Origin: an uncultured Alphaproteobacteria bacterium
GTDB taxonomy: Bacteria; Pseudomonadota; Alphaproteobacteria; Caulobacterales; Hyphomonadaceae
Reading direction: 5' to 3'
DNA length: 64,000 bases
Assembly (NCBI GenBank): GCA_963718145.1
Contig: CAVQYJ010000008.1
Coordinates: forward strand, 87,066-151,065
The notes beneath the pieces are model-generated. The model was not told the origin of the DNA. It saw only the letters and a list, made by a program, of their open reading frames with translations, and made no database searches. Both the position numbers and the translations under genes were made by a program. Position 1 is the stretch's first letter. The number at the start of each line of letters is the position of its first letter. Below are positions 4,845 to 27,633 of the stretch, one piece after another.

Positions 4845-5547
4845 GGGCGCAGTATCGCCCCGGCCCGCGCGGTGTAGGGTCAAATGTCCTGCATATTTTT
4901 TCCCATCGTTGATGTTGCGAGAGTTTTTGCGCGCGGGACGCCGACAGGTGTTGGATAAGTCGGGGTGAGGGTCGCGCCGGCCGACCCATCATGGTCCGCC
5001 TGCGTCGCTTTGCGATGACCAGCGGAAAGTCGCCAGCTGTCCCGGCCGGGGATGCCACTGGCTTATCCACAACAGCCTGTTTCCCCAGCGTTCTGCGGTA
5101 ATTGAATTCAATTCGGCGTCAGGACGAATTCCGGCGGGTGTGTTGCCGGAATGCCTGCGCGGCCTATCTGAAGTCCCTGGCGTTGGGCCATCCCGTTGAA
5201 AAAAGGAGCTATTGGTAAACGCAGATCGTTAACGGCTCGCCTGGCACGGGAATTGATGTCCCCCCCAGGTCCGATGGCGCGGGATTTGCGACTTCCAGGG
5301 CAATCAGCCGCAAGGCTTGCCCCGTATCAAAGGCCCAGATAGGGCGGCTGACGTCGCACAGCTCAGAACAGAACACGGCGACGGGTGAAGTGGAGTGTCT
5401 ATCCGAACGCGCGCGGGCGTTCACACGCAATTTGCGTTTACGATGATTAAGGGGAAGCCTGGGGTGTTAGCCCTCGAGAAACCACTGAACCTTATTATCG
5501 CCCATCTCAAGGCGGCGTTCACAGCCGTCGTCAGGTGGTGGTTCACT

Positions 5548-6561
5548 ATGTCTGATGCTGAAAAGCGTCTGACCCAGAAACGCGCGGTCTCGGTGGTTGC
5601 CTGTGTGGCGGTCTTCGCCATGGCTGGCCCGTTCATCGCCCAGCGTTTCGACGTCCAGAAGACCGAAGAAGCCTATCGCGCCGACGCCTATCAGCTTGCC
5701 CAGTCGCTGGGTGCGGGCGGGGCCGAGACTGTGCAGCACGTCTCCTTCACCAACAAGGCGAGTCCCACCGCGCTGTTCCAGTCGGTGTCGTTCGCCCTCA
5801 GCCAGACCTCCGACGTCGGCCTGAAGGCTGTGCCGCTGCGTGAGCGGGACACGATGGTGCTAGCGAGCCTGACCGGCTTTACCGCCCAGAACCTCGGCGC
5901 GGCGTCGCACGAGCAGAGCGAGGCGGACTGCCTCGCCGAAGCCATCTATTACGAAGCGCGTTCGGAGAACGTCAAAGGCCAGATGGCCGTGGCGGAAGTG
6001 GTGATGAACCGCGTCAAGGATCCGCGCTTCCCGAAGACGGTGTGCGCCGTGGTCTACCAGGGCCGCTATCGCGATACCGGATGCCAGTTCACCTTCACCT
6101 GCGACGGCTCGCTGAACAACCCGCCGCAGGGGGAGTCGTGGGATCGTGCCCGGGCGATCGCACTGCACGTGGTCATGGGGCTGAACACGCCCATCACCAA
6201 CAAGGCGACGCACTATCACACCGACTATGTGAACCCGTACTGGAAGGCCGGCCTCGTCGAGACCGCCGAGATCGGCACGCACATCTTCTACCGCTTCCCG
6301 AAGACCGGGCAGGAATGGTCGGATGCGCGCATCGCCCTTGCGGCCCAGAACGGCGAATCGAGCGATGACCAGCCGATCGTTGTCCCGGTCGACCTGCCGG
6401 CCGATGCGGGCATCGCGATCAGCCCGCCGGTCAACGACGCCGACAAGCTGGCGGCGGCGCAGCTCCTGAAGATTTCGGTCACGCAGAAGCCGCAGCCAGT
6501 GGTTGAGCCGATCGCCGCCGCTGCGCCTGCAGGCGCAGCGCCGGATGCGCGAGCGCTTTAG
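5548..6561 (+). CDS. cell wall hydrolase, SleB/Hydrolase_2 family, with N-terminal membrane anchor and Pro/Ala-rich tail
   Basis: 'CLAEAIYYEARSENVKGQMAVAEVVMNRVKDPRFPKTVCAVVYQ...QFTFTCDG...ATHYHTDYVNPYW' is the SleB-type pattern. The start is taken at 'MSDAEKRL' (5548); the ORF is open from 5395. Confidence 0.8.
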   Translation: MSDAEKRLTQKRAVSVVACVAVFAMAGPFIAQRFDVQKTEEAYRADAYQLAQSLGAGGAETVQHVSFTNKASPTALFQSVSFALSQTSDVGLKAVPLRERDTMVLASLTGFTAQNLGAASHEQSEADCLAEAIYYEARSENVKGQMAVAEVVMNRVKDPRFPKTVCAVVYQGRYRDTGCQFTFTCDGSLNNPPQGESWDRARAIALHVVMGLNTPITNKATHYHTDYVNPYWKAGLVETAEIGTHIFYRFPKTGQEWSDARIALAAQNGESSDDQPIVVPVDLPADAGIAISPPVNDADKLAAAQLLKISVTQKPQPVVEPIAAAAPAGAAPDARAL

Positions 6562-7448
6562 GCCTCGAAGTCCAGTCCTACATCCAGGTTGACAGCGCTA
6601 TGCGTCAGCGCGCCGGCAGAAATGTAGTCGACGCCCGTTTCGGCGATGGCTTTCACCGTCTCAAGGCGGACGCCGCCGGAGGCTTCGGTCTTCGACTTGC
6701 CGGCGACGATGGCGACGGCTTGCCTCAGCATGTCCGGCTTCATGTTGTCGAGCAGGATGGCGTCGGGGCTGTGTTTCAGCGCTTCGCGGAGCTGGTCGAG
6801 GCTGTCGACCTCGATCTCGATCATGCGCAGGTGGCCGACGGCGGCCTTGGCGCGCCTCATCGCTTGCGCGACGCCCCCGGCGGCGGCGATGTGGTTGTCC
6901 TTGATGAGGATCGCGTCGTCGAGCCCGAGGCGGTGGTTGACGCCGCCGCCGATGCGCACGGCGCGCTTCTCCAGCGCGCGGAAGCCAGGCGTGGTCTTGC
7001 GCGTGCAGGTGATCTTGGCGTGCGTGCCTTTCACTTCCGCCACGAATTTCGCCGTGAGGGTGGCGACGCCTGACAGCGGGCCGATGAAGTTGAGCAGGGT
7101 GCGTTCGGCGGTCAGCACGGAGCGCGCGCTGCCTTCGATGCGGATGAGCTGGGCGCCTTTGGCGAAGGGGACGCCTTCGCTGATCAGCGTGGTCCATGTC
7201 GCGTCGGGATCGACCAGCTTGAGCGCAAGCCGCGCGGCATCGTAGCCAGCGGCGAGGCCGGGCTCGCGGGCGCTGACGACGGCGGTCATGCGCGTCGTGG
7301 CGGGGATGACCGCGTCGGTCGTGATGTCGCCGCCTCGGCCGAGATCTTCCTGGAGGGCGAGACGCACCAGCGGCTCGATGATGATGTCCGGCAGGGGGGC
7401 GTTCGGCAACATGTCGCCGGACGTGATGGTCTGGATCAGGTCGGTCAT
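6558..7448 (-). CDS. nadC: nicotinate-nucleotide diphosphorylase (quinolinate phosphoribosyltransferase)
   Basis: 296 aa with 'EDLGRGGDITT', 'AERTLLNFIGPLSGVATLT' and 'TRKTTPGFRALEKRAVRIGGGVNHRLGLDDAILIKDNH'. The ATG at 7448 overlaps the nadB stop (ATGA). Confidence 0.93.
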   Translation of the reverse strand: MTDLIQTITSGDMLPNAPLPDIIIEPLVRLALQEDLGRGGDITTDAVIPATTRMTAVVSAREPGLAAGYDAARLALKLVDPDATWTTLISEGVPFAKGAQLIRIEGSARSVLTAERTLLNFIGPLSGVATLTAKFVAEVKGTHAKITCTRKTTPGFRALEKRAVRIGGGVNHRLGLDDAILIKDNHIAAAGGVAQAMRRAKAAVGHLRMIEIEVDSLDQLREALKHSPDAILLDNMKPDMLRQAVAIVAGKSKTEASGGVRLETVKAIAETGVDYISAGALTHSAVNLDVGLDFEA

Positions 7449-8980
7449 TGCGGTCCTTCCGCGATGGCGGCGTGGTGGATCAGCGGTTGCCCATCCAGGC
7501 CCCGCCGGATGAAGGTGCGATGCGGCGGGGCGAAGGCGTCCGGGAAGTCGGAGCGGTAATGTCCGCCGCGGCTTTCCCGCCGGGCCAGTGCAGCCGAGAC
7601 GATCAGCCTGGAGGCGACAAGCGCGCGGGCTGGGCCGACATTGTCCATCGCGGCGTTCAGCCAGTCGAGCGTGGCGGCGAGGCCCGCGGCGGTGCGGATG
7701 ACGCCGCACTGGCCATGCATGCGCTTGCGCAGTTCGGTGAGGGAGAGTTCGCCGACATCGGGCGGGGCTTCGGCTTGCGCCGGGCCAGGCGTGGCGAGGT
7801 CGGACTCCTTGAGCCGGCGCGCGGCGCGTTCGGCGAACACGACGGCTTCAAGGAGAGAGTTCGAGGCGAGGCGATTGGCGCCGTGCGCTCCGGTGGAGGC
7901 GCTCTCGCCGCAGGCCGACAGGCCTTCCAGCGAGGTGCGGGCCCAGAGGTCGGTGACGACGCCGCCCATGTGGTAGTGCATGGCGGGCGCGACGGGGATC
8001 GTATCGACGCGCGGATCGATCTTCGCGCTCATGCAGGCGTCGAAGACTGTGGGGAAATGATGCGGGAATTCGGCGCCGACGGCCTTGCGGCAATCGAGGA
8101 AGGCGCCGCGGCCGGCATCGCGCTCGGCATGGATGGCGCGGGCGACTTCGTCGCGCGGCGCAAGGTCGCCGAGCGTGTGGTAGTCGGCCATGAAGGCGCG
8201 GCCAGTTCTGTCGACGAGGTGGGCGCCTTCGCCCCTTAGAGCCTCCGTAGCAAGAGGCGCAGGGTCGCGGCCGATGTCGATGGCGGTGGGGTGGAACTGC
8301 ACGAATTCCGGATCGCCGATCAGGGCGCCTGCGGCGTAGGCCATGGCCACAGCGTCGCCCTGCGACGAGCGCGGATTGGTGGTGATGGCGAAGAGGCCGC
8401 CGGAGCCGCCGGCGCACAGGATGGTCTCGCGCGCTGCGAGCTGGGCATGATCGCCGCCACGGTCTTCGGCAAGGACGCCGGCGATGCGGCCATTGGAATC
8501 CTGCAGCAGCGCGATGGCCTTGATGCCGTCGATCACCTCGATGTGGGAGGAGGCGGCGACCGCGTAGCTGAGCGCCTCCATGATCGCCTTGCCGGCGAGG
8601 TCGCCTGAGACGCGGGCGACACGCGCGCGCGAGTGCGCGGCTTCCATGGAGAGGGCGAGTTCTCCGTCGGCGGTGCGGTCGAACGGCACGCCCAGGTCGA
8701 GGAGGTCGCGAACGCGATGCGGGCCGTCCTCGGCGATGAGCCGCGCCACCACCGGATCGACGATGCCGGCGCCGGCGGCGATGGTGTCGGCGGCGTGGAG
8801 GCCGGGATTGTCTTCCGGAGACAGCGCCGCGGCGAGGCCGCCCTGCGCCCAGGCGGAGGCCGCGGCCTGGCCGATGGGAGCAAGCGCAATGACAGTGCAC
8901 TTCCGCGGCGAAAGCTTCAGCGCGAGGAACAGGCCAGCGAGGCCGCCGCCGACGATGAGGATGTCGCGTGGCTGGGTCAC
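7445..8980 (-). CDS. nadB: L-aspartate oxidase
   Basis: 511 aa with FAD fold 'ILIVGGGLAGLFLALKL', 'AQGGLAAAL' and 'HYHMGGVVTD'. The GTG start at 8980 overlaps the stop of the upstream paralog gene (GTGA). Confidence 0.93.
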   Translation of the reverse strand: MTQPRDILIVGGGLAGLFLALKLSPRKCTVIALAPIGQAAASAWAQGGLAAALSPEDNPGLHAADTIAAGAGIVDPVVARLIAEDGPHRVRDLLDLGVPFDRTADGELALSMEAAHSRARVARVSGDLAGKAIMEALSYAVAASSHIEVIDGIKAIALLQDSNGRIAGVLAEDRGGDHAQLAARETILCAGGSGGLFAITTNPRSSQGDAVAMAYAAGALIGDPEFVQFHPTAIDIGRDPAPLATEALRGEGAHLVDRTGRAFMADYHTLGDLAPRDEVARAIHAERDAGRGAFLDCRKAVGAEFPHHFPTVFDACMSAKIDPRVDTIPVAPAMHYHMGGVVTDLWARTSLEGLSACGESASTGAHGANRLASNSLLEAVVFAERAARRLKESDLATPGPAQAEAPPDVGELSLTELRKRMHGQCGVIRTAAGLAATLDWLNAAMDNVGPARALVASRLIVSAALARRESRGGHYRSDFPDAFAPPHRTFIRRGLDGQPLIHHAAIAEGPQ

Positions 8981-9447
8981 GACAGCAGGTCCAGCTTGCG
9001 GCGGAATTTTACCGGGGCCTGGCTGTAGGATTTGAACAGGCCGGTCATTTCATCGCCGGTGCGGCTGATGGTGACGGCGAAGCTGTCGGCGGCGTAGCGC
9101 TGCTGCATCTGCTTCAGCATGTCGGGAGGATCGACGGAGACGATCGACTTGATCGCGCTGGTCATGACGAGGTCGGCGCCGGCCTGGGTCGCGATGCAGC
9201 TTTGCTCGGTTTTCACCGAATGCGGCAGGCGGGTCTCGCAGGTCCAGATCGCCGTGAAGTTGCAGGAGAAGGCGTCAGCGGCGGTCTCCTTGACGCGCAT
9301 GTCGCCGTGCAGAGCGCAGCCATAGGCGATCTTGTCGGTCTCGAATGTCCATGCGCCTTCAGGCGAGGGGGCTTTCTTCAGCTGCGCATGGGCGGCGCTG
9401 CAGGCGAGGACGAGGGCGAGCGGCAGGACGGCGCGCAGGATGATCAC
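8977..9447 (-). CDS. secreted 4-Cys protein, paralog 1 of 4 (unknown family)
   Basis: GTG start at 9447. Signal peptide 'VIILRAVLPLALVLACSAAHAQ', then 'LKKAPSPEGAWTFETD..C..C......C....QSC' and C-terminal '...VKFRRKLDLLS'. The sequence is alignable by eye to the three genes upstream. Confidence 0.75.
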   Translation of the reverse strand: MIILRAVLPLALVLACSAAHAQLKKAPSPEGAWTFETDKIAYGCALHGDMRVKETAADAFSCNFTAIWTCETRLPHSVKTEQSCIATQAGADLVMTSAIKSIVSVDPPDMLKQMQQRYAADSFAVTISRTGDEMTGLFKSYSQAPVKFRRKLDLLS

Positions 9448-9921
9448 GAGACGAGATCCTGCTTGCGGCGAAATTTCACTGGCGCCTCGCCCATCGAATC
9501 GAACAGGCCGTCCATTTCGTCGCCGCGGTTGTTGATGGTGACGTGGAAATTGTCGGGGGCGTAGCGGCGGTCCATGCCCTGCATCAGTTCCTTGGGCTCG
9601 ACGCTGACGATGCGGTCGACCTTGCTGATGATGTCGAGCTTCGCGCCGACCTGTTTGGCGCTGCAGGACTGGTCGGTGTTGATGGTGCGGATGACGCCGC
9701 CGGTGCAGGCCTGCACGGCGCGGAAGGTGCACGCGAACTGGTCCTTGCGGTCGGTCTCGCGGATTTTCATTTCGCCGGAGATGGTGCACGAGTCGTTGAG
9801 CACGTCGGTCTTGAAATTCCACACGCCTTCAGGCGAGGGCGGCTTCTTGAGTTGCGCGAATCGCCGCGGGCGCCGCGATAGCGGAGGCGGCGAGCGCGGC
9901 AAGGAGTACGGCGCGCCTCAC
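9444..9921 (-). pseudogene. secreted 4-Cys protein, paralog 2 of 4; 1-nt frame break between signal peptide and mature part
   Basis: The GTG at 9921 overlaps the paralog 3 stop (GTGA) and encodes 'VRRAVLLAALAASAIAAPAA'. The mature part 'FAQLKKPPSPEGVWNFKTD...VKFRRKQDLVS' is in another frame (ORF 9444..9902). The span is 478 nt = 3n+1, with the break near 9855-9865. Confidence 0.7.
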
Positions 9922-10445
9922 GACACGAGGTCCTTGTCGCGCCAGAAGCGGACATCGGCCTGGTTGATCGACTTGAACGAGCCGACGAGATCGCCATTCC
10001 TGGCCGCGCGCACGCGGAAATTGTCGGGACGGTAGCTGTCATTGGCGATGATCGCGGCTTTGTACTCAGCGGGGAAGGTGGCGACGATCTGTTCAACCTT
10101 GCTGACGATCGCGAATTCGCCGGCGGTCTCGCTGACACTGCAGGACTGCTTCACCTCGCTCCAGGTGCGGCTCGCGCCTTCGCCGCATTCCTCGCGCGAG
10201 ACGAAGGTGCAGGCATAGCCGGCGGATTTCGGCACGGGGATGAAGCTGATCTCGCCCGAGATCGTGCAGCCCTTGTTGCGCAGTTCGGTCTTGAACTGCC
10301 AGCGGCCGGAGATGTCGATGGGTTTGTCCGGCTTGCCCGCCTGCGCCAGCGCGCCGCCGGTGGCGAGGACAGGGACAAGAACCAGGGCGAGCGATACGAC
10401 AAGAGACCCGAGCGCATTGGGGCGCGGAAGAGACAGATGCTTCAT
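9918..10445 (-). CDS. secreted 4-Cys protein, paralog 3 of 4
   Basis: 175 aa with signal peptide 'SLVVSLALVLVPVLATGGALAQA', then 'GRWQFKTELRNKGCTISGE...YACTF...C....KQSC...RPDNFRV...VRFWRDKDLVS'. Confidence 0.75.
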   Translation of the reverse strand: MKHLSLPRPNALGSLVVSLALVLVPVLATGGALAQAGKPDKPIDISGRWQFKTELRNKGCTISGEISFIPVPKSAGYACTFVSREECGEGASRTWSEVKQSCSVSETAGEFAIVSKVEQIVATFPAEYKAAIIANDSYRPDNFRVRAARNGDLVGSFKSINQADVRFWRDKDLVS

Positions 10446-10465
10446 GCCGCCCCCATGCTCGCGCC

Positions 10466-10948
10466 CTATGAGATCAGTTCGATGTCGCGCCAGAACCGCG
10501 CTTTCAGCTGGCGTTGCGCGTCATAGTGCTGGCCGATCATCTCGCTGAGGTTCTTCTGCATCTGCACGATGAAGTTGTCGGCGAGATAGCTTTCGAAGGC
10601 GATCAGCGGATCGAGCTTCGGCTTGCGGTCGAGGATCTTGTCGACCTGGGTCTTGATCGCGATCTGCTTGCCGACCTTCTGCGCCGTGCAGGACTGCTGC
10701 ACCTTGATGTAGAGGTTGTTCGACAGGGGGCCGCAGATCTGCTCGCTCTCGAACTTGCAGGAATAGGTGTTCTTGACCGATGTCTCCGTGAAGCGGATGC
10801 GGCCGGAAATCTGGCAGTCGCCGGCGAACTTGGACGTGTCGAACAGCCAGTCTCCGGTCAGTTCATCGGCCGCGAAAGCGGGCATGGCCGCCGAGAGGGC
10901 GACCACGCTTCCGAACACCGCGGCAAGACGTTTCAGGCCGCGGGTCAT
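10466..10948 (-). CDS. secreted 4-Cys protein, paralog 4 of 4
   Basis: 160 aa with signal peptide 'LAAVFGSVVALSAAMPAFA', then 'GDWLFDTSKFAGDCQISGR...YSCKF...C....QQSC...LADNFIV...ARFWRDIELIS'. The ATG at 10948 overlaps the nadA stop (ATGA). Confidence 0.75.
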   Translation of the reverse strand: MTRGLKRLAAVFGSVVALSAAMPAFAADELTGDWLFDTSKFAGDCQISGRIRFTETSVKNTYSCKFESEQICGPLSNNLYIKVQQSCTAQKVGKQIAIKTQVDKILDRKPKLDPLIAFESYLADNFIVQMQKNLSEMIGQHYDAQRQLKARFWRDIELIS

Positions 10949-12099
10949 ATGAGTTCCAGCGGGCGCCTTGGCGCGGTCTCCGCGGCGCTGCCGATCGCGA
11001 ACTTCGGGAAGTCCTTCGGCTTGGGAAGCGCGAGCATCGCGTCGATCGCCGCTTTCGCGCGCAGGCGCACGTCCTCCGGCACCGTCACCTCGTGCTTCAT
11101 CTCGACGAGAGCATCGTAGATGTTCTCCAGCGAGATCCGCTTCATGTGAGGGCAGAGATTGCATGGTTTCACAAACTCCACGCCGGGGTTTTCCGCGGCT
11201 ACGTTGTCGCTCATCGAGCACTCGGTGAGCAGGACGACCTTTTTGAGGCCGGACTGCCTAACGTAATGCGCGAGCGCTGAAGTGGAGCCTGCAAAGTCGG
11301 CTTCTTCAAGGACATCCGGGGGACATTCCGGGTGGGCGAGCACAATTACGCCCGGATGCGCCTCGCGAATCTGCCTTACATCTTCGCCAGAAAACTTCTC
11401 GTGGACCTCGCAACGGCCCTTCCAGGCGATGATCTGGATATCGGTGTTGGCGGCAACATTCTTCGCCAGGAATTCGTCGGGGATGAGGATCACCTTGTCC
11501 GTGCCCCACTTGGCCGCGACGTGCTCGACGACCTGGACCGCGTTGGACGAGGTGCAGGTGATGTCGCATTCGGCTTTCACGTCGGCCGTGGTGTTGACGT
11601 AGGTGACGATCGGCAGGCCTGGATAGCGGGCGCGGATCAGGCGGACGTCGGCCCCCGTCACCGAAGCCGCCAGCGAACAGCCGGCGCGCAGATCGGGGAT
11701 CAGCACCGTCTTGTCGGGACTGAGGATTTTGCTCGTTTCGGCCATGAAATGGACGCCGGCCTGGACGATGATTTTCGCGTCCGTCCGGGCGGCTTCGCGG
11801 GCGAGTTGCAGGGAATCCCCCCGGAAATCGCCAACAAGGGCGAAGACGTCAGGCGTCATGTAGTTGTGGGCGAGGATGACCGCGCCGCGCTGTTTCTTCA
11901 GCTTGTTGATATGGAAGACGAAGGGGGCCACCGCGGGCCACTCCATGGGCGTCACGAAGTCCTTCACCTGCTCGTACAGGTGGTCGGTCGCGGCTTTCAC
12001 TTCGTCATTGTAGGCCAGCCCGCGCTTCTCGGCGGCGGTGGGGCGGCGGCGGGCGGCGGGGATATCGCAACCTTGGCCGAATTCGATGATGCGGGCCAT
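10945..12099 (-). CDS. nadA: quinolinate synthase
   Basis: 384 aa with 'AVILAHNYMTPDVF', 'VHFMAETSKILSP', 'PDLRAGCSLA' and 'TYVNTTADVKAECDITCTSSNAV'. The start is taken at 'MARIIEF' (12099) within ORF 10945..12147. Confidence 0.93.
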   Translation of the reverse strand: MARIIEFGQGCDIPAARRRPTAAEKRGLAYNDEVKAATDHLYEQVKDFVTPMEWPAVAPFVFHINKLKKQRGAVILAHNYMTPDVFALVGDFRGDSLQLAREAARTDAKIIVQAGVHFMAETSKILSPDKTVLIPDLRAGCSLAASVTGADVRLIRARYPGLPIVTYVNTTADVKAECDITCTSSNAVQVVEHVAAKWGTDKVILIPDEFLAKNVAANTDIQIIAWKGRCEVHEKFSGEDVRQIREAHPGVIVLAHPECPPDVLEEADFAGSTSALAHYVRQSGLKKVVLLTECSMSDNVAAENPGVEFVKPCNLCPHMKRISLENIYDALVEMKHEVTVPEDVRLRAKAAIDAMLALPKPKDFPKFAIGSAAETAPRRPLELI

Positions 12100-12137: not shown

Positions 12138-12158
12138 TTGTGCTCAAACTGAGTATAA
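12138..12158. promoter_or_regulatory. 21-nt imperfect palindrome TTGTGCTCA-AAC-TGAGTATAA, candidate NadQ operator 39 nt upstream of nadA
   Basis: The palindrome was read directly. It matches my recollection of the NadQ motif (TTAT.CTCA-N3-TGAG.ATAA) from comparative-genomics reconstructions. A NadQ-like gene is at 14379..15329. Confidence 0.5.
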
Positions 12159-12216
12159 GATGGGCCCGAAAAAATGGCCTTCAAGGGAAAGGCCGTCACC
12201 GGTTTGTAAGCCCTAC

Positions 12217-12237
12217 TTAAGCTCAACTTGAGCAAAA
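12217..12237. promoter_or_regulatory. second palindrome TTAAGCTCA-ACT-TGAGCAAAA (perfect GCTCA-N3-TGAGC core), candidate NadQ operator
   Basis: Read directly. It lies 79 nt from the first site in the same nadA upstream spacer. Confidence 0.45.
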
Positions 12238-12307: not shown

Positions 12308-12883
12308 TCAGCCGTTCGGCCGACAGGACGAGAAGGCCACGCCCTGCGCCTTGAAGACATTGGCGAGAAAGGCCGCGCGGCGGCCCGTGGTGCGCTTGTA
12401 GATCACGACCACGTAGGGATACGCGCCGGGGGTGCAGTACGTGGTGCGTTCGGCGTCGCCCTTGGCGGACGTATCGACCTGGCCCCGAGTGAAGGCGGCG
12501 CGCGCCTGCATCAGCGCGAGGGCGGCGTCGGAGAGCTGCTGCGGATTGCCCATCTCGATCGACATCGAGCAGGCGCCGCCGGGCAACAGCATCACATAGG
12601 CGATGTTCTGCGTGCTGATCCGCCAGGCGTCGGTGGCGGTAGGGGAGCCCGTCTTGCTTGCCGGGACGATGGGCTTTGCATCCGGCATGGCGGCCATGAG
12701 ATCGCGCAGCGGCTTGCCCTCCATGATGCTGGTGAGACAGCCGCCGTCGAGCGCCTGCTTCTGCAGGGCGAGGGCTGGGCGCATGATGGTCCCGGAGCTT
12801 TCGAGGTCGAGGCGCGCGCTGTCCACCATGCCGGTGCAGGCAGATGCCGCCAGGACGGCGAGGCATGCGACGGCGTGGCGCAT
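12308..12883 (-). CDS. hypothetical lipoprotein
   Basis: Start at 'MRHAVACLAVLAASAC' (lipobox LAASAC) within ORF 12308..13033. No family was recognised. Confidence 0.55.
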   Translation of the reverse strand: MRHAVACLAVLAASACTGMVDSARLDLESSGTIMRPALALQKQALDGGCLTSIMEGKPLRDLMAAMPDAKPIVPASKTGSPTATDAWRISTQNIAYVMLLPGGACSMSIEMGNPQQLSDAALALMQARAAFTRGQVDTSAKGDAERTTYCTPGAYPYVVVIYKRTTGRRAAFLANVFKAQGVAFSSCRPNG

Positions 12884-13200
12884 GAGATCCTGCCAACAAC
12901 GCGGAACGCTGGTCGCTGCTTCGAATGGTGTCAATCGACGACGAGCGACATGAACGGATGTCCTCTTCCCACGAGCGGGAGTATAGTGATCTCCGGAAAT
13001 AATTCGCAGACTTTTGGCCCGGCTCCGGTGCACAAGTTAGAGCGGCAGGGAAGCGGACGCTTCGTGCCGTTTGTCATCTTTCCTGGCTAAGACGCTGATT
13101 GGCCCAATCCTGACATTTGAAAGAGCCGCTTCGGATCGCGTTGCAAGATGGTGCTTTGGGAATATTCTTCAGAACGCGTTTGTTGGGTTGGGGTGATTCA

Positions 13201-14222
13201 ATGCGCTTTGCAGCTGTGACGGCCTTCGCGCTTTTGATTGCGACGCTCTCGTCGTGCACGCTCCTGATTCCCGCGCGCAGCTTTGACCTCTACACGACGC
13301 CACAGCAGCGCGTTGCGATCGGGGCTGACCGTCACATCCACATGGTGTGCATGGGAGATGGAAGCCCGACGGTAATCTCAGTGCGGGCGCCAGCGGATGG
13401 TCAGCCGATTGGCGCCTGGTTCAACCCAAGATCGCCTGGACCACGAAGGTGTGCGCCTGGGATCGCGCCGGCCACGGCTTCAGCAGTGGCAGCCCTGACC
13501 CGCAGGACATCCTCCATACTGAAGACGATCTTGAGCGGGCGCTTGCCGCCGTGAGACTGGATGGCCCTCTGGTGATGGTCGCTCACTCGCTGGGCGCCTT
13601 CGAGACACTCCTCTTCGCCGACCGCCACCCAGATCGCGTAGCGGCCATGGTGCTGGTCGATCCATCGACGCCGGATCAGGTCGAAGAGTATGCACGTGCC
13701 GCGCCGGCGCTCATGGCTTGGTCCGCGAAATCGGACGAGCAGTCTTTCGACCGGGTCCGCTCGTGCATCAGGGCACAGAGACGCGCCGGCGAAGGTCCGC
13801 CGCCTGACTGCGCCAGCCTCCATTCCTACTACCCGGAACCGCTGCGCACAAATCTCCTCATGGCCGCGAATGAGCCCGTGTACTGGGAGGCGTACCTGTC
13901 GCTCTTCGGCCTGCGCGAGCGCAATTCGAAATTGGTGATCAATGAAAAGCGGAACTATGGGGCGATGCCGCTGATCGTGCTGAACGCTGGTCTCTACAGC
14001 TTTCCAGCGGCGCCGGCGGAGGCGCAAAGAGAGGCCCCGGCTTTAAGGACCGTGATCACGGCCGGGCACGAAGCGATAGCGCGCCTGTCCAGCCGCGGCG
14101 TCATGGAGACGGTCCCGGACTCTGCTCACGGGATCGCCGTCCAGAAGCCGCAGGTTGTTATCGAAGCAATCGAAAGGGCTATCGACGCAGCTCGAGCGAA
14201 CGCCACAGCGCTTCATCCCTGA
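13201..14222 (+). pseudogene. alpha/beta hydrolase with lipoprotein-type signal peptide; 1-nt frame break near 13375-13380
   Basis: 'MRFAAVTAFALLIATLSSC...RHIHMVCMGDGSPTVI' (frame of 13117..13554) continues as 'SAGASGWSADWRLVQPKIAWTTKVCAWDRAGHGFSS...VAHSLGAF' (frame of 13347..14222). The span is 1022 nt = 3n+2. Confidence 0.75.
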
Positions 14223-14378: not shown

Positions 14379-15329
14379 CTATCCTCTCGGCGTCTGGACG
14401 CCCGAAACGTGGCCTTCGCGGAGGGCTTCGCTGCGGAAGCGGAAGAGTTCGGCAGGGCGGCCGCCGGTGGCCTGCGTGAAGCTGCCGAGGCCTTCGACGA
14501 GGCCTGAATGGTTCAGGGACCTCCTGAAGTTCTGCTTGTGCAGCGGCAGGCCGAGCAGCGACTCCACAACGCGCTGCAGGTCCGACAGTGTGAACCGGTC
14601 GGGCATCAGTTCGAACACGACCGGGCGGTATTTGATCTTGCCACGCAGGCGGCCGATGGCGGTGGCTAGGATGCGGCGGTGGTCGGAGATCATCGGCTCG
14701 CCGAGCGCCGCGGCAGGGATTTTGGGAGGCTTCTGCTTGCGGTCGCGGGCGGCTTCCGGGGCGAGGCCGGCTTCGTACAGGAGTTCGTAACGCTCGAGCG
14801 TGCGCTCCTCGATCCATGGGCGGCCGTCGAGACCGAAGGCGAGCTGGGCGCGGGTGAGGCGTTCGGCGGCGCCCTTGCTGGCCTCCGACCACGAGGCGAG
14901 GGCGGGGCCGATGGCATGATCGATGATTCCGGGTCGGCCCTTGCGGTGGTCTTCCCAGGGAAAGTGCCGGTACCAGTCGCGCCACACGGCGTCGAATGCG
15001 GATATGTCGGTTCGTTCAGGGGTAAGGCCGAGATAGCCCACGGAGATGAGGCGCGCGCCGGTGGGCGCATCGCCGAGTTCGGCCTGCGGGAGTTCGCGCC
15101 CACGATCGCCGAATGTGTAGAGCTGTTCGACATAGCCGGGTTCGAAGCCGGTCTGGGCGCGGACCCAGTCGCGCAGGCCGAGTTCGAAGGTGCGGTGGCC
15201 CTGCGGGTCGAACACGCCGTGAGGCAGGCCCGTGCCGCCGTCGGGAATCCGGGTTTCGAGGGCGTAGGGGCCTTCGGCGTCAGCGGCGACGATCACGGCG
15301 GACAGGCCCACGGCGATTGGGGTCGTCAT
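14379..15329 (-). CDS. nadQ: NadQ/NrtR-type regulator: degenerate Nudix-like domain plus C-terminal winged helix
   Basis: The C-terminus 'FELMPDRFTLSDLQRVVESLLGLPLHKQNFRRSLNHSGLVEGLGSFTQATGGRPAELFRFR' has the NrtR/NadQ wHTH pattern. The N-terminal 'RTFELGLRDWVRAQTG' is a Nudix box lacking the catalytic EE. The gene lies 2.2 kb from nadABC. Confidence 0.65.
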   Translation of the reverse strand: MTTPIAVGLSAVIVAADAEGPYALETRIPDGGTGLPHGVFDPQGHRTFELGLRDWVRAQTGFEPGYVEQLYTFGDRGRELPQAELGDAPTGARLISVGYLGLTPERTDISAFDAVWRDWYRHFPWEDHRKGRPGIIDHAIGPALASWSEASKGAAERLTRAQLAFGLDGRPWIEERTLERYELLYEAGLAPEAARDRKQKPPKIPAAALGEPMISDHRRILATAIGRLRGKIKYRPVVFELMPDRFTLSDLQRVVESLLGLPLHKQNFRRSLNHSGLVEGLGSFTQATGGRPAELFRFRSEALREGHVSGVQTPRG

Positions 15330-15853: not shown

Positions 15854-16510
15854 CTAGCCTCCCTTTCCCATGTCCAGTTCCGCCATCAGGGCCTCGAACC
15901 GGGCCAGAAACAAGGCCTGCGCCTCCGTTGGCGACAGCGGCGTCATGTCCGGCGCAGGCCCCGGCGGAGGGGCGCCGAAAAAGGTGAGCGCTTCGTCAAT
16001 ATTGAAGCCGGCGAGACGCGTGGCCTCGTAGAAGGCGGCGGCCTGGTCGCACTGCTTGATGCGGGACTTTACCTCGTCCGGCATGCGCGGGCTGAGGCCG
16101 AAGCGCAGGCGGATGGCCGCATCCAGCCGGGCCTCGAACTGGCGGTAGTCGACGCCCAGCGCCGTCTTGAACGGCGAGATCATGTCTCCGATCACATATT
16201 CCGGAGCATCGTGCAGCAGCGCGCCGAGCTGGTCGGCGGCGGACGTCGCGGGCCACAGCTCGCCGATGAAATATTCCACGAGGACAGAATGCTGGGCCAC
16301 GGAAAACGCATGCTCGCCCTTGGTCTGGCCGTTCCAGCGGGCGACGCGGGCGAGGCCGTGGGCGATATCCTCGATCTCGATGTCGAGCGGGGAGGGGTCC
16401 AGCAGGTCGAGCCGGCGGCCCGACAGCATGCGCTGCCACGCCCGCGGACTGCCCGGGACTTGCGATTTCCGGCCATTTGAACCGCTCTTGCTGGAAGGGT
16501 TTTGGGCCAT
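15854..16510 (-). CDS. HD-domain phosphohydrolase (YfbR-like nucleotidase fold)
   Basis: 'FSVAQHSVLV' and 'GALLHDAPEYVIGDMISPFK' form an H...HD...D pattern. An alternative GTG start is at 16519. The gene ends 3 nt from the phosphatase gene. Confidence 0.65.
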   Translation of the reverse strand: MAQNPSSKSGSNGRKSQVPGSPRAWQRMLSGRRLDLLDPSPLDIEIEDIAHGLARVARWNGQTKGEHAFSVAQHSVLVEYFIGELWPATSAADQLGALLHDAPEYVIGDMISPFKTALGVDYRQFEARLDAAIRLRFGLSPRMPDEVKSRIKQCDQAAAFYEATRLAGFNIDEALTFFGAPPPGPAPDMTPLSPTEAQALFLARFEALMAELDMGKGG

Positions 16511-16748
16511 GCTCCGCACCTGCCATCGAAATTATTTCGCACGCAAGCGGAACTGGCGATTCAGGGGCCTGTTGAATTCGCGCAGAACGCAACCGCGCAT
16601 GGCCGCGGGCCGCTCGATCCGAGCACCGATGCCGGCAAGAACCCTTTCCACAGAAATTGCGAAGAGTTACTCGCGAGCAAGCTTTGCGTCAGGGTTTCTT
16701 AAAGCCGCTCGCGTAGGTTGACCTCAATTCGCGGGAGAACAGCGGAAC

Positions 16749-27546: not shown

Positions 27547-27633
27547 TGGTACGGGCGGCCGGGGTCGAACCGGCACTTCCTTACGGAAAACGGATTTTAA
27601 GTCCGTTGCGTCTACCAGTTCCGCCACGCCCGC
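27547..27633 (-). tRNA. tRNA-Leu (anticodon UAA), type II with long variable arm and encoded CCA
   Basis: The reverse complement is GCGGGCG-TG-GCGGAACTGGTAGACGC-A-ACGGA-CTTAAAA-TCCGT-TTTCCGTAAGGAAGT-GCCGG-TTCGACC-CCGGC-CGCCCGT-A-CCA. All four stems pair; 1:72 is a G-U pair. Confidence 0.93.
27595..27633. repeat. 39-nt direct repeat, copy 1 (tRNA-Leu nucleotides 1-39, inside the intact gene)
   Basis: TTTTAAGTCCGTTGCGTCTACCAGTTCCGCCACGCCCGC is identical to 30174..30212. Confidence 0.95.

Follow-up and report, generated by a model that had tools for sequence, protein, structure and literature searches.

De novo synthesis of nicotinamide adenine dinucleotide (NAD) is regarded as a fully cytoplasmic pathway carried by three enzymes, NadB, NadA and NadC. 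What, then, is the role of genes for apparently exported proteins placed inside the operon that encodes these enzymes? The question is raised by a 64,000-nucleotide stretch of DNA (the window) from an uncultured alphaproteobacterium of the Hyphomonadaceae (contig CAVQYJ010000008.1), in which four genes for small proteins, referred to here as P1 to P4, lie between nadA and nadB. The data discussed below suggest that the family to which these proteins belong is an integral part of the nadA-nadB-nadC operon in Alphaproteobacteria of the Hyphomonadaceae/Maricaulaceae type, where it appears as a conserved and tightly packed component.

The order on the minus strand, taken from the table of open reading frames (ORFs) and from direct reading of the sequence, is nadA-P4-P3-P2-P1-nadB-nadC. 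The quinolinate synthase gene nadA (10945-12099; Pfam NadA, 6e-109, and an NCBIfam equivalog) ends in an ATGA overlap (10945-10948) with P4 (10466-10948), which is the first gene after nadA and encodes the most conserved paralog (160 residues). A 20-nt gap, the one non-overlapping junction, separates P4 from P3 (9918-10445; 175 residues), which has a GGGGG ribosome-binding site of its own. P3 meets P2 (9444-9921; 478 nt) in a GTGA at 9918-9921, and P1 (8977-9447; 156 residues) has a GTGA overlap at either side, with P2 at 9444-9447 and at 8977-8980 with the L-aspartate oxidase gene nadB (7445-8980; NCBIfam NF005701, 1.2e-204). The nadB stop in turn overlaps the start of nadC, the gene for quinolinate phosphoribosyltransferase (6558-7448; TIGR00078, 7e-94), in an ATGA at 7445-7448. 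All the junctions listed in an earlier note on this DNA are thus present. Its count of four genes encoding 156-175 residues between nadA and nadB is right as far as the ORFs are concerned; P2, however, is not intact but frameshifted (see below).

To place the family in other genomes, 57 loci (given L numbers here) were examined, drawn from a genome scan, from ten divergent clusters of the family and from metagenomes. The family is found between or adjoining nadA and nadB in 53 of them, in one to six copies. The five genome-scan loci, four in Hyphomonadaceae metagenome-assembled genomes (MAGs) and one in an uncultured alphaproteobacterium, are all arranged as nadQ-nadA-(three or four copies)-nadB-nadC. 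The ten divergent clusters were sampled deliberately, their members being ~25-35% identical to the window proteins, and in ten out of ten these members stand directly after nadA and/or before nadB, with most junctions again being 4-nt overlaps. Taken together, the genome scan and the divergent clusters supply 14 loci, all with the nad link. The position is kept down to 51% NadB identity. The metagenome scan, which added the remaining 42 loci, used P4-type patterns; of 36 loci informative for the upstream side, 32 have nadA there, and of 29 informative for the downstream side, 28 have nadB, while bounded arrays hold one to five copies, most often two. Among the loci from the divergent clusters, single copies and larger arrays are both represented: one copy in L020 (a Maricaulaceae MAG), two in L012, L014 and L016, at least two in L006, L009 and L017, at least three in L018, four in L019 and six in L013. 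One exception is L054 (1869-2324), where a P4-type gene truncated in the signal peptide abuts a folD-like gene, which reflects either a chimeric assembly or a rearrangement. Relatives elsewhere do, with very few exceptions, link the family to nad genes. The earlier note had looked to the Hyphomicrobiales for such a recurrence; the genes do recur between nadA and nadB, but the named relatives belong to the Hyphomonadaceae and Maricaulaceae and not to that order.

The genes themselves are firmly established as real. All pairs among P1-P4 are similar in BLASTP comparisons (29-49% identity, E 2e-11 to 2e-48), which places their paralogy far beyond chance, and the alignment of the four holds 24 invariant columns over its whole length, including G-x-W-x-F-x-T, the four Cys, QSC, D-x-F-x-V and the C-terminal F-x-R...L..S. 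This mutual similarity had been seen by eye in the earlier note. That the genes are spurious ORFs of high-GC DNA was considered and rejected on the basis of the homologs, the ratio of nonsynonymous to synonymous substitution rates (dN/dS) and the structure model. Members of the family at large can be recognised by their Sec-type signal peptide, by exactly four Cys, by the motifs G-x-W-x-F-x-T, Y-x-P-D-N-F and F-x-R, and by a fixed C-terminal tail whose last residue is Ser. Across 158 aligned members (P3 numbering), about 17 residues are nearly invariant, including G47 (156/158), W49 (158/158), F51, T53, C60, G64, C79, C87, Q100, C102, Y138, D141, F143, G155, F167 and R169 (154/158). The mature part, of ~125-140 residues, has exactly four Cys in 150 of 154 members. 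The invariant Arg is followed by exactly six residues in 133 of 156 members, and in 144 of 156 the chain ends in Ser, with Val or Ile before it. In the window this tail, with the motif (D/E)-(L/P/A)-(V/I)-Ser, is encoded at 8980-8997, 9447-9464, 9921-9938 and 10469-10486. Because P4 keeps the tail without overlapping the next gene, it is a protein-level feature, and it looks like a docking or recognition motif.

Family scans of P1-P4 gave no match in Pfam, NCBIfam, PADLOC or PHROG, neither to MliC (Pfam) nor to the known defence proteins in PADLOC and PHROG, and a profile search of PDB sequences gave none at E up to 10. Sub-threshold matches to GGDEF_2, IL3Ra_N and the MATalpha HMG-box (E ~0.01) were rejected as noise, and nothing beyond such noise appeared in Pfam or NCBIfam at E up to 1. 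An exhaustive profile search over 1.84 billion cluster representatives was needed to find the relatives, 333 at E up to 1e-3 and 219 at E up to 1e-10; a word-indexed homology search recovered only 8 and 29. The best 150 of the 333 are nearly all 140-180 residues long, the rest being shorter fragments and one outlier of 384 residues. The source names all read 'hypothetical protein', and the named source organisms are Hyphomonadaceae MAGs, Ponticaulis sp., a Maricaulaceae MAG and unclassified Alphaproteobacteria. No P4 relative is present among 72,556 plasmids. No description of the family turned up in the searchable literature, which was covered for the family, for HNE_0691 and for nad genes in Hyphomonas/Hyphomonadaceae. 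The sole trace is HNE_0691, a candidate member that Leyn et al. 2016 (PMC5343134) enter in their table of the NadQ regulon as a 'hypothetical protein', uncommented and for a single genome; its locus-tag prefix suggests Hyphomonas neptunium. The author of the earlier note did not recognise the family, and P1-P4 indeed stand outside the characterised families covered by these scans.

Where would the proteins act? A signal-peptide-like N terminus (Lys/Arg, hydrophobic core, small-x-small) was detected by a simple heuristic in 141 of 154 members, and an A-x-A precedes the mature part (A32 in 126 and A34 in 139 of 158). These features agree with the signal peptides proposed in the earlier note and suggest that the P proteins are Sec-exported and act in the periplasm. 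No motif for twin-arginine translocation (Tat) is found among the 154 members. The possibility that they are lipoproteins was rejected, as a lipobox-like sequence is present in only eight of 158.

A high-confidence prediction gives the family the fold of an eight-stranded up-and-down β-barrel of calycin-like type. The AlphaFold2 model of mature P3, built on a 146-sequence alignment, has a predicted local distance difference test score (pLDDT) of 94.5 and a predicted template modelling score (pTM) of 0.85. It supersedes an earlier model (11 sequences, signal peptide included) that reached a pLDDT of 81 and gave poor Foldseek matches. The eight strands follow in meander order with one short helix between strands 5 and 6; G-x-W is positioned at the start of strand 1 and R169 at the end of strand 8. 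Beyond strand 8 the chain continues for only six residues, a C-terminal tail modelled with low confidence and without a predicted helix. In the hairpins β2/β3 and β3/β4, C60 is opposite C87 and C79 is opposite C102 (P3 numbering), and two cross-strand disulfides, C60-C87 and C79-C102, would be formed in this geometry. Conserved residues occupy alternate positions on every strand and the positions between them are charged and variable, which suggests that the conserved face is the barrel interior. The structural matches are weak, and the sensible ones are all eight-stranded ligand-binding barrels: designed fluorogen binders, ToxS, VtrC, lipocalins and nitrophorins. For the designed binders (6d0t/6czh), the template modelling (TM) scores are 0.52-0.59 when normalised to the query and 0.65-0.73 when normalised to the target; ToxS (8alo_B) and its relative VtrC (5kev_B), a bile-salt binder, are among the best natural matches (E 4e-3, TM 0.42-0.46).

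The family also appears to share the regulation of the nad enzymes. The published consensus for the repressor NadQ is ttATRCTCannntGAGYATaa (Leyn et al. 2016, PMC5343134), and the candidate operators that the earlier note had placed ahead of the unit are present as two palindromes upstream of nadA. The proximal one, ATACTCAGTTTGAGCAC on the coding strand (12140-12156), has one mismatch, and the distal one, TTGCTCAAGTTGAGCTT on the same strand (12219-12235), has two mismatches to ATRCTCANNNTGAGYAT, the consensus from PMC5343134. Other NadQ-site matches in the 64 kb are two only, with three mismatches each. A pair of candidate sites, 78-79 bp apart, precedes nadA in the window and in L001-L005; the spacing is 62-72 bp in L009 and L014, a single site is present in L013, and candidate sites are found upstream of nadA in every locus holding that region. 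The gene for a NadQ-like regulator (14379-15329, minus strand; 316 residues) encodes a C-terminal NrtR winged-helix domain (1e-20), and the protein is 55.7% identical to the regulator adjoining nadA in L013 and 80-84% identical to the L001-L005 regulators. Moreover, a sequence scan revealed no promoter-like site on either strand between 6300 and 12500 and no terminator-like site on the coding strand between nadA and nadC. Co-transcription of the P genes with the nad genes, under the control of NadQ, is thus a well-supported prediction. In L014 (1346-2542), a gene for a transporter of the major facilitator superfamily (MFS) type is divergent from nadA, and the common intergenic region holds two NadQ sites; the product is perhaps a precursor transporter similar to NiaP that NadQ regulates in that organism.

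At its longest, the nadA ORF would reach upstream to TTG 12147, a codon that lies within the proximal operator. The start used here is ATG 12099, which has a GGAGG 6 nt upstream, and the ATGGCCCGC start is kept in six loci. A hairpin followed by a T-run (12166-12194, minus strand), a terminator-like match, lies between the two operators. Six loci (the window and L001-L005) keep it, and where L002 has a T:A pair, L003 has a compensatory G:C; the element may terminate the upstream gene or act as an attenuator in the nadA leader. No Rfam match is found near nadA or at the hairpin, and no NAD riboswitch in the 64-kb window, where the sole match at the Rfam gathering threshold is one tRNA (27550-27633, minus strand).

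How intact is the array, and how old? In P2, a single extra A at 9861 puts the signal peptide out of frame with the mature part. The frame opened by GTG 9921 encodes the signal peptide VRRAVLLAALAASAIAAPAA and runs into a stop at 9829, whereas the mature part is in a different frame, the first start of which is TTG 9902. The A at 9861 is missing from L064, a nearly identical contig that was assembled independently from a public run; there the gene reads VRRAVLLAALAASAIAAPAAFAQLKKSPSPEG... uninterrupted, and the P2 orthologs in L001, L003 and L005 are intact. The mature part has the same dN/dS as its paralogs, so the lesion is either very recent, that is, a fresh pseudogene, or an assembly error. 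Programmed frameshifting was rejected: there is no slippery site, and L064 simply lacks the base. The suggestion that the seven genes form one translationally coupled unit is supported by the tight 4-nt packing, but in the sequence as it stands the coupling from P3 through P2 to P1 is interrupted at P2.

A rough neighbour-joining tree divides the window's clade into three orthologous groups, of P4, P3 and P1/P2 type. The duplication that separated P1 from P2 is older than the split between the window and L003 and was followed by differential loss. Other lineages expanded independently; in L013, for example, the six copies cluster together. The array is accordingly not the four-fold local amplification proposed in the earlier note; its three orthologous groups are of old date and have been conserved as a set, and other lineages carry one to six copies. 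P4 is 64-77% identical to its orthologs, with a dN/dS of ~0.3. Family members have dN/dS values of 0.29-0.56 and the nad genes values of 0.07-0.15, all of them rough because dS is near saturation. The family evolves three to five times faster than the nad enzymes.

Tentatively, and with rather less than even confidence, we favour the view that the P proteins, under NadQ control, are soluble, reside in the periplasm and bind a small molecule linked to pyridine/NAD homeostasis. This view draws on the class of fold, on the strictness of the genomic context, on the predicted co-regulation and on Bug69 and Bug27 as a precedent. In such a scenario, lifting of NadQ repression would lead to synthesis of the P proteins together with the de novo NAD enzymes; once exported and stabilised by two disulfides, they would act in the periplasm and might capture, buffer or sense quinolinate, nicotinate or a related precursor. 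The paralogs may have diversified in specificity or may be assembled as heteromers. More doubtful is the further claim that they represent a dedicated extracytoplasmic component of NAD homeostasis: a new periplasmic binder or sensor of pyridine precursors, built as a disulfide-locked calycin-like barrel without a partner of the ATP-binding cassette (ABC), tripartite ATP-independent periplasmic (TRAP) or tripartite tricarboxylate transporter (TTT) type, and expressed stoichiometrically with quinolinate synthase and aspartate oxidase.

In Bordetella and Achromobacter, the genes for Bug69 and Bug27 accompany nadQ-nadC; these periplasmic binding proteins of the TctC family bind quinolinate in vitro (PMC11452294). 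Like the P family, they are exported, are genomically tied to NAD genes and the NadQ regulator, and have no adjacent membrane transporter; for both, the handling of a pyridine precursor is proposed. The fold is different, however: Bug69/Bug27 are two-lobed Venus-flytrap proteins of ~300 residues, whereas the P proteins are predicted single barrels of 125-140 residues without a match to Pfam TctC. Moreover, the Bug69/Bug27 genes are single-copy and their hosts lack nadA and nadB and salvage quinolinate, while the P genes occur in tandem arrays inside a complete de novo operon. The idea of a periplasmic protein linked to NAD genes is already known; what is new here is the fold, the tandem arrangement and the location in an operon complete for de novo synthesis. 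The operon itself resembles the canonical NadQ-regulated nadABC operon of Alphaproteobacteria (PMC5343134) in enzymes, gene order and a palindromic operator upstream of nadA, and differs from it in the one to six genes for exported proteins between nadA and nadB.

As regards the fold, lipocalins and other calycins (bacterial Blc, nitrophorins) share with the P family an eight-stranded barrel, the G-x-W of strand 1 and the Arg of the last strand, as well as export and stabilisation by disulfides, the latter predicted for the P proteins; lipocalins typically bind small ligands. In contrast to lipocalins, the P family has no C-terminal helix packed on the barrel and has a short helix between strands 5 and 6, a four-Cys pattern and a Val/Ile-Ser tail of its own. 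It has no match to Pfam lipocalin, and the Foldseek TM scores to lipocalins are 0.38-0.48. With neither that helix nor any sequence match, the family is not filed as a lipocalin. The Vibrio proteins ToxS and VtrC are likewise small periplasmic eight-stranded barrels, and they bind bile salts. They are, however, anchored in the membrane, and each forms an obligate heterodimer with a transmembrane transcription factor from an adjacent gene, while the P loci have no such partner in the operon or the conserved flanks, and the P proteins have no sequence similarity to ToxS or VtrC.

Several observations weigh against a periplasmic binder of pyridine precursors. No transporter gene is consistently adjacent in the examined loci, and as the hosts make quinolinate themselves, precursor scavenging is not obviously needed. 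The best Foldseek match to the PDB has an E of only 1.6e-3, and the conserved polar residues T53, Q100, S115, D141 and R169 may simply close the barrel as in lipocalins. The binder function is inferred, with ligand, cavity and binding residues all putative, and co-transcription and NadQ control are likewise deduced from sequence. Stand-alone copies of P4 type exist outside nad operons (L046 629-1141, L051 320-838 and L061 2365-2869); the L046 and L061 copies have the same small ORF upstream. Finally, all loci come from one clade, with NadA 69-90% identical and common flanking synteny (yfbR-like, nadQ, and a cell-wall hydrolase gene after nadC), so the linkage could stem from a single ancestral insertion. 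On this basis, the family may have begun as a gene for an envelope protein unrelated to NAD that was inserted once, in the clade ancestor, between nadA and nadB. It would have persisted and been duplicated through steady expression and because its removal would disturb the coupling to nadB, and its position would say nothing of its function. In addition to the single clade, the copy number that varies freely from one to six, the three- to fivefold faster evolution, the stand-alone copies and the ability of P2 to take a frameshift in this genome are consistent with this model. The position is nevertheless kept in the ten family clusters and at NadB identities as low as 51%, no sampled member of the divergent clusters is located elsewhere, and the stand-alone copies have changed C termini (L046 and L051, otherwise intact) or a frameshift (L061, near an SNase-like nuclease gene). 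The ~17 nearly invariant residues also argue against a mere passenger. We consider this explanation somewhat less likely than the binder reading, yet it is the main and a serious rival, since the ligand of the P proteins is putative, no transporter is adjacent, the hosts are prototrophs and only one clade is represented.

The raised dN/dS relative to neighbouring genes and the repeated lineage-specific tandem expansions, as seen in the clustering L013 copies, would also be expected of periplasmic inhibitor or immunity-type proteins, directed against a lytic enzyme or an exported toxin, diversified in conflict and merely parked in the nad operon. Small, exported barrels with putative disulfide bonds would suit such a role. 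However, the family matches neither PADLOC nor MliC/PliC nor other inhibitor families, no effector gene is nearby, dN/dS stays below 0.6, and it is the inward-facing strand residues that are conserved, rather than a variable surface; this role is improbable. We find it quite improbable that the barrels are co-sensors in the manner of ToxS/VtrC, sensing a ligand through pairs formed among themselves or with a membrane protein's periplasmic domain and relaying the signal across the membrane. ToxS (8alo_B) and VtrC (5kev_B) do figure among the best natural structural matches, the fixed-length, low-confidence tail ending in Val/Ile-Ser resembles a docking motif, and several distinct paralogs are kept side by side. 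Yet the structural similarity is generic, the signal peptides are cleavable instead of serving as a membrane anchor, and a gene for a membrane-bound partner is found neither in the operon nor in its conserved flanks. Lastly, NadA carries an oxygen-sensitive [4Fe-4S] cluster, and the four invariant Cys and the place of the genes immediately after nadA might point to cytoplasmic metal or iron-sulfur accessory proteins for NadA. In the predicted barrel, though, the Cys are cross-strand neighbours with the geometry of disulfides and not of a cluster-binding loop. The conserved A-x-A signal peptides essentially exclude a cytoplasmic role, and the Tat motif needed for export of a folded cofactor protein is absent, which makes this the least credible explanation, with very little probability.

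An exported family that is almost confined, in one group of aquatic bacteria, to the nadA-nadB site points to an unrecognised link of the pathway to the cell envelope or the environment. If the P proteins are indeed a dedicated extracytoplasmic component of NAD homeostasis, de novo NAD synthesis in Hyphomonadaceae/Maricaulaceae would have an obligatory or conditionally important periplasmic arm, so far undescribed. Without a Pfam, NCBIfam or structural entry, the family moreover defines a new domain of unknown function, for which the genomic context gives an unusually clear lead. A tractable test case is offered by the single gene in Maricaulaceae, and possibly by the candidate member HNE_0691 in a cultured Hyphomonas. 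If the link is instead due to hitch-hiking, the locus would be a clean example of passengers locked into an essential operon by translational coupling.

Other genes near the operon are kept to varying extents. A cell-wall hydrolase-like gene (5395-6561, plus strand) converges on nadC, the two ends overlapping by 4 nt; this neighbour of nadC is kept from the window to the Maricaulaceae MAG, and its counterpart in L020 matches Pfam Hydrolase_2. In L001-L005, nadQ is directly before nadA, unlike in the window, where a lipoprotein-like ORF (12308-13033, minus strand) and an alpha/beta hydrolase gene (13347-14222, plus strand) lie between them. Just upstream of nadQ in the window, there is a gene for a YfbR-like HD-domain phosphohydrolase (15854-16531, minus strand), which may be a nucleotidase linked to NAD metabolism. 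It is kept upstream of nadQ in distant loci (L013, 1756-2379; L020, 6482-7069), and in L020 a tyrosine-phosphatase-like gene separates it from nadQ.

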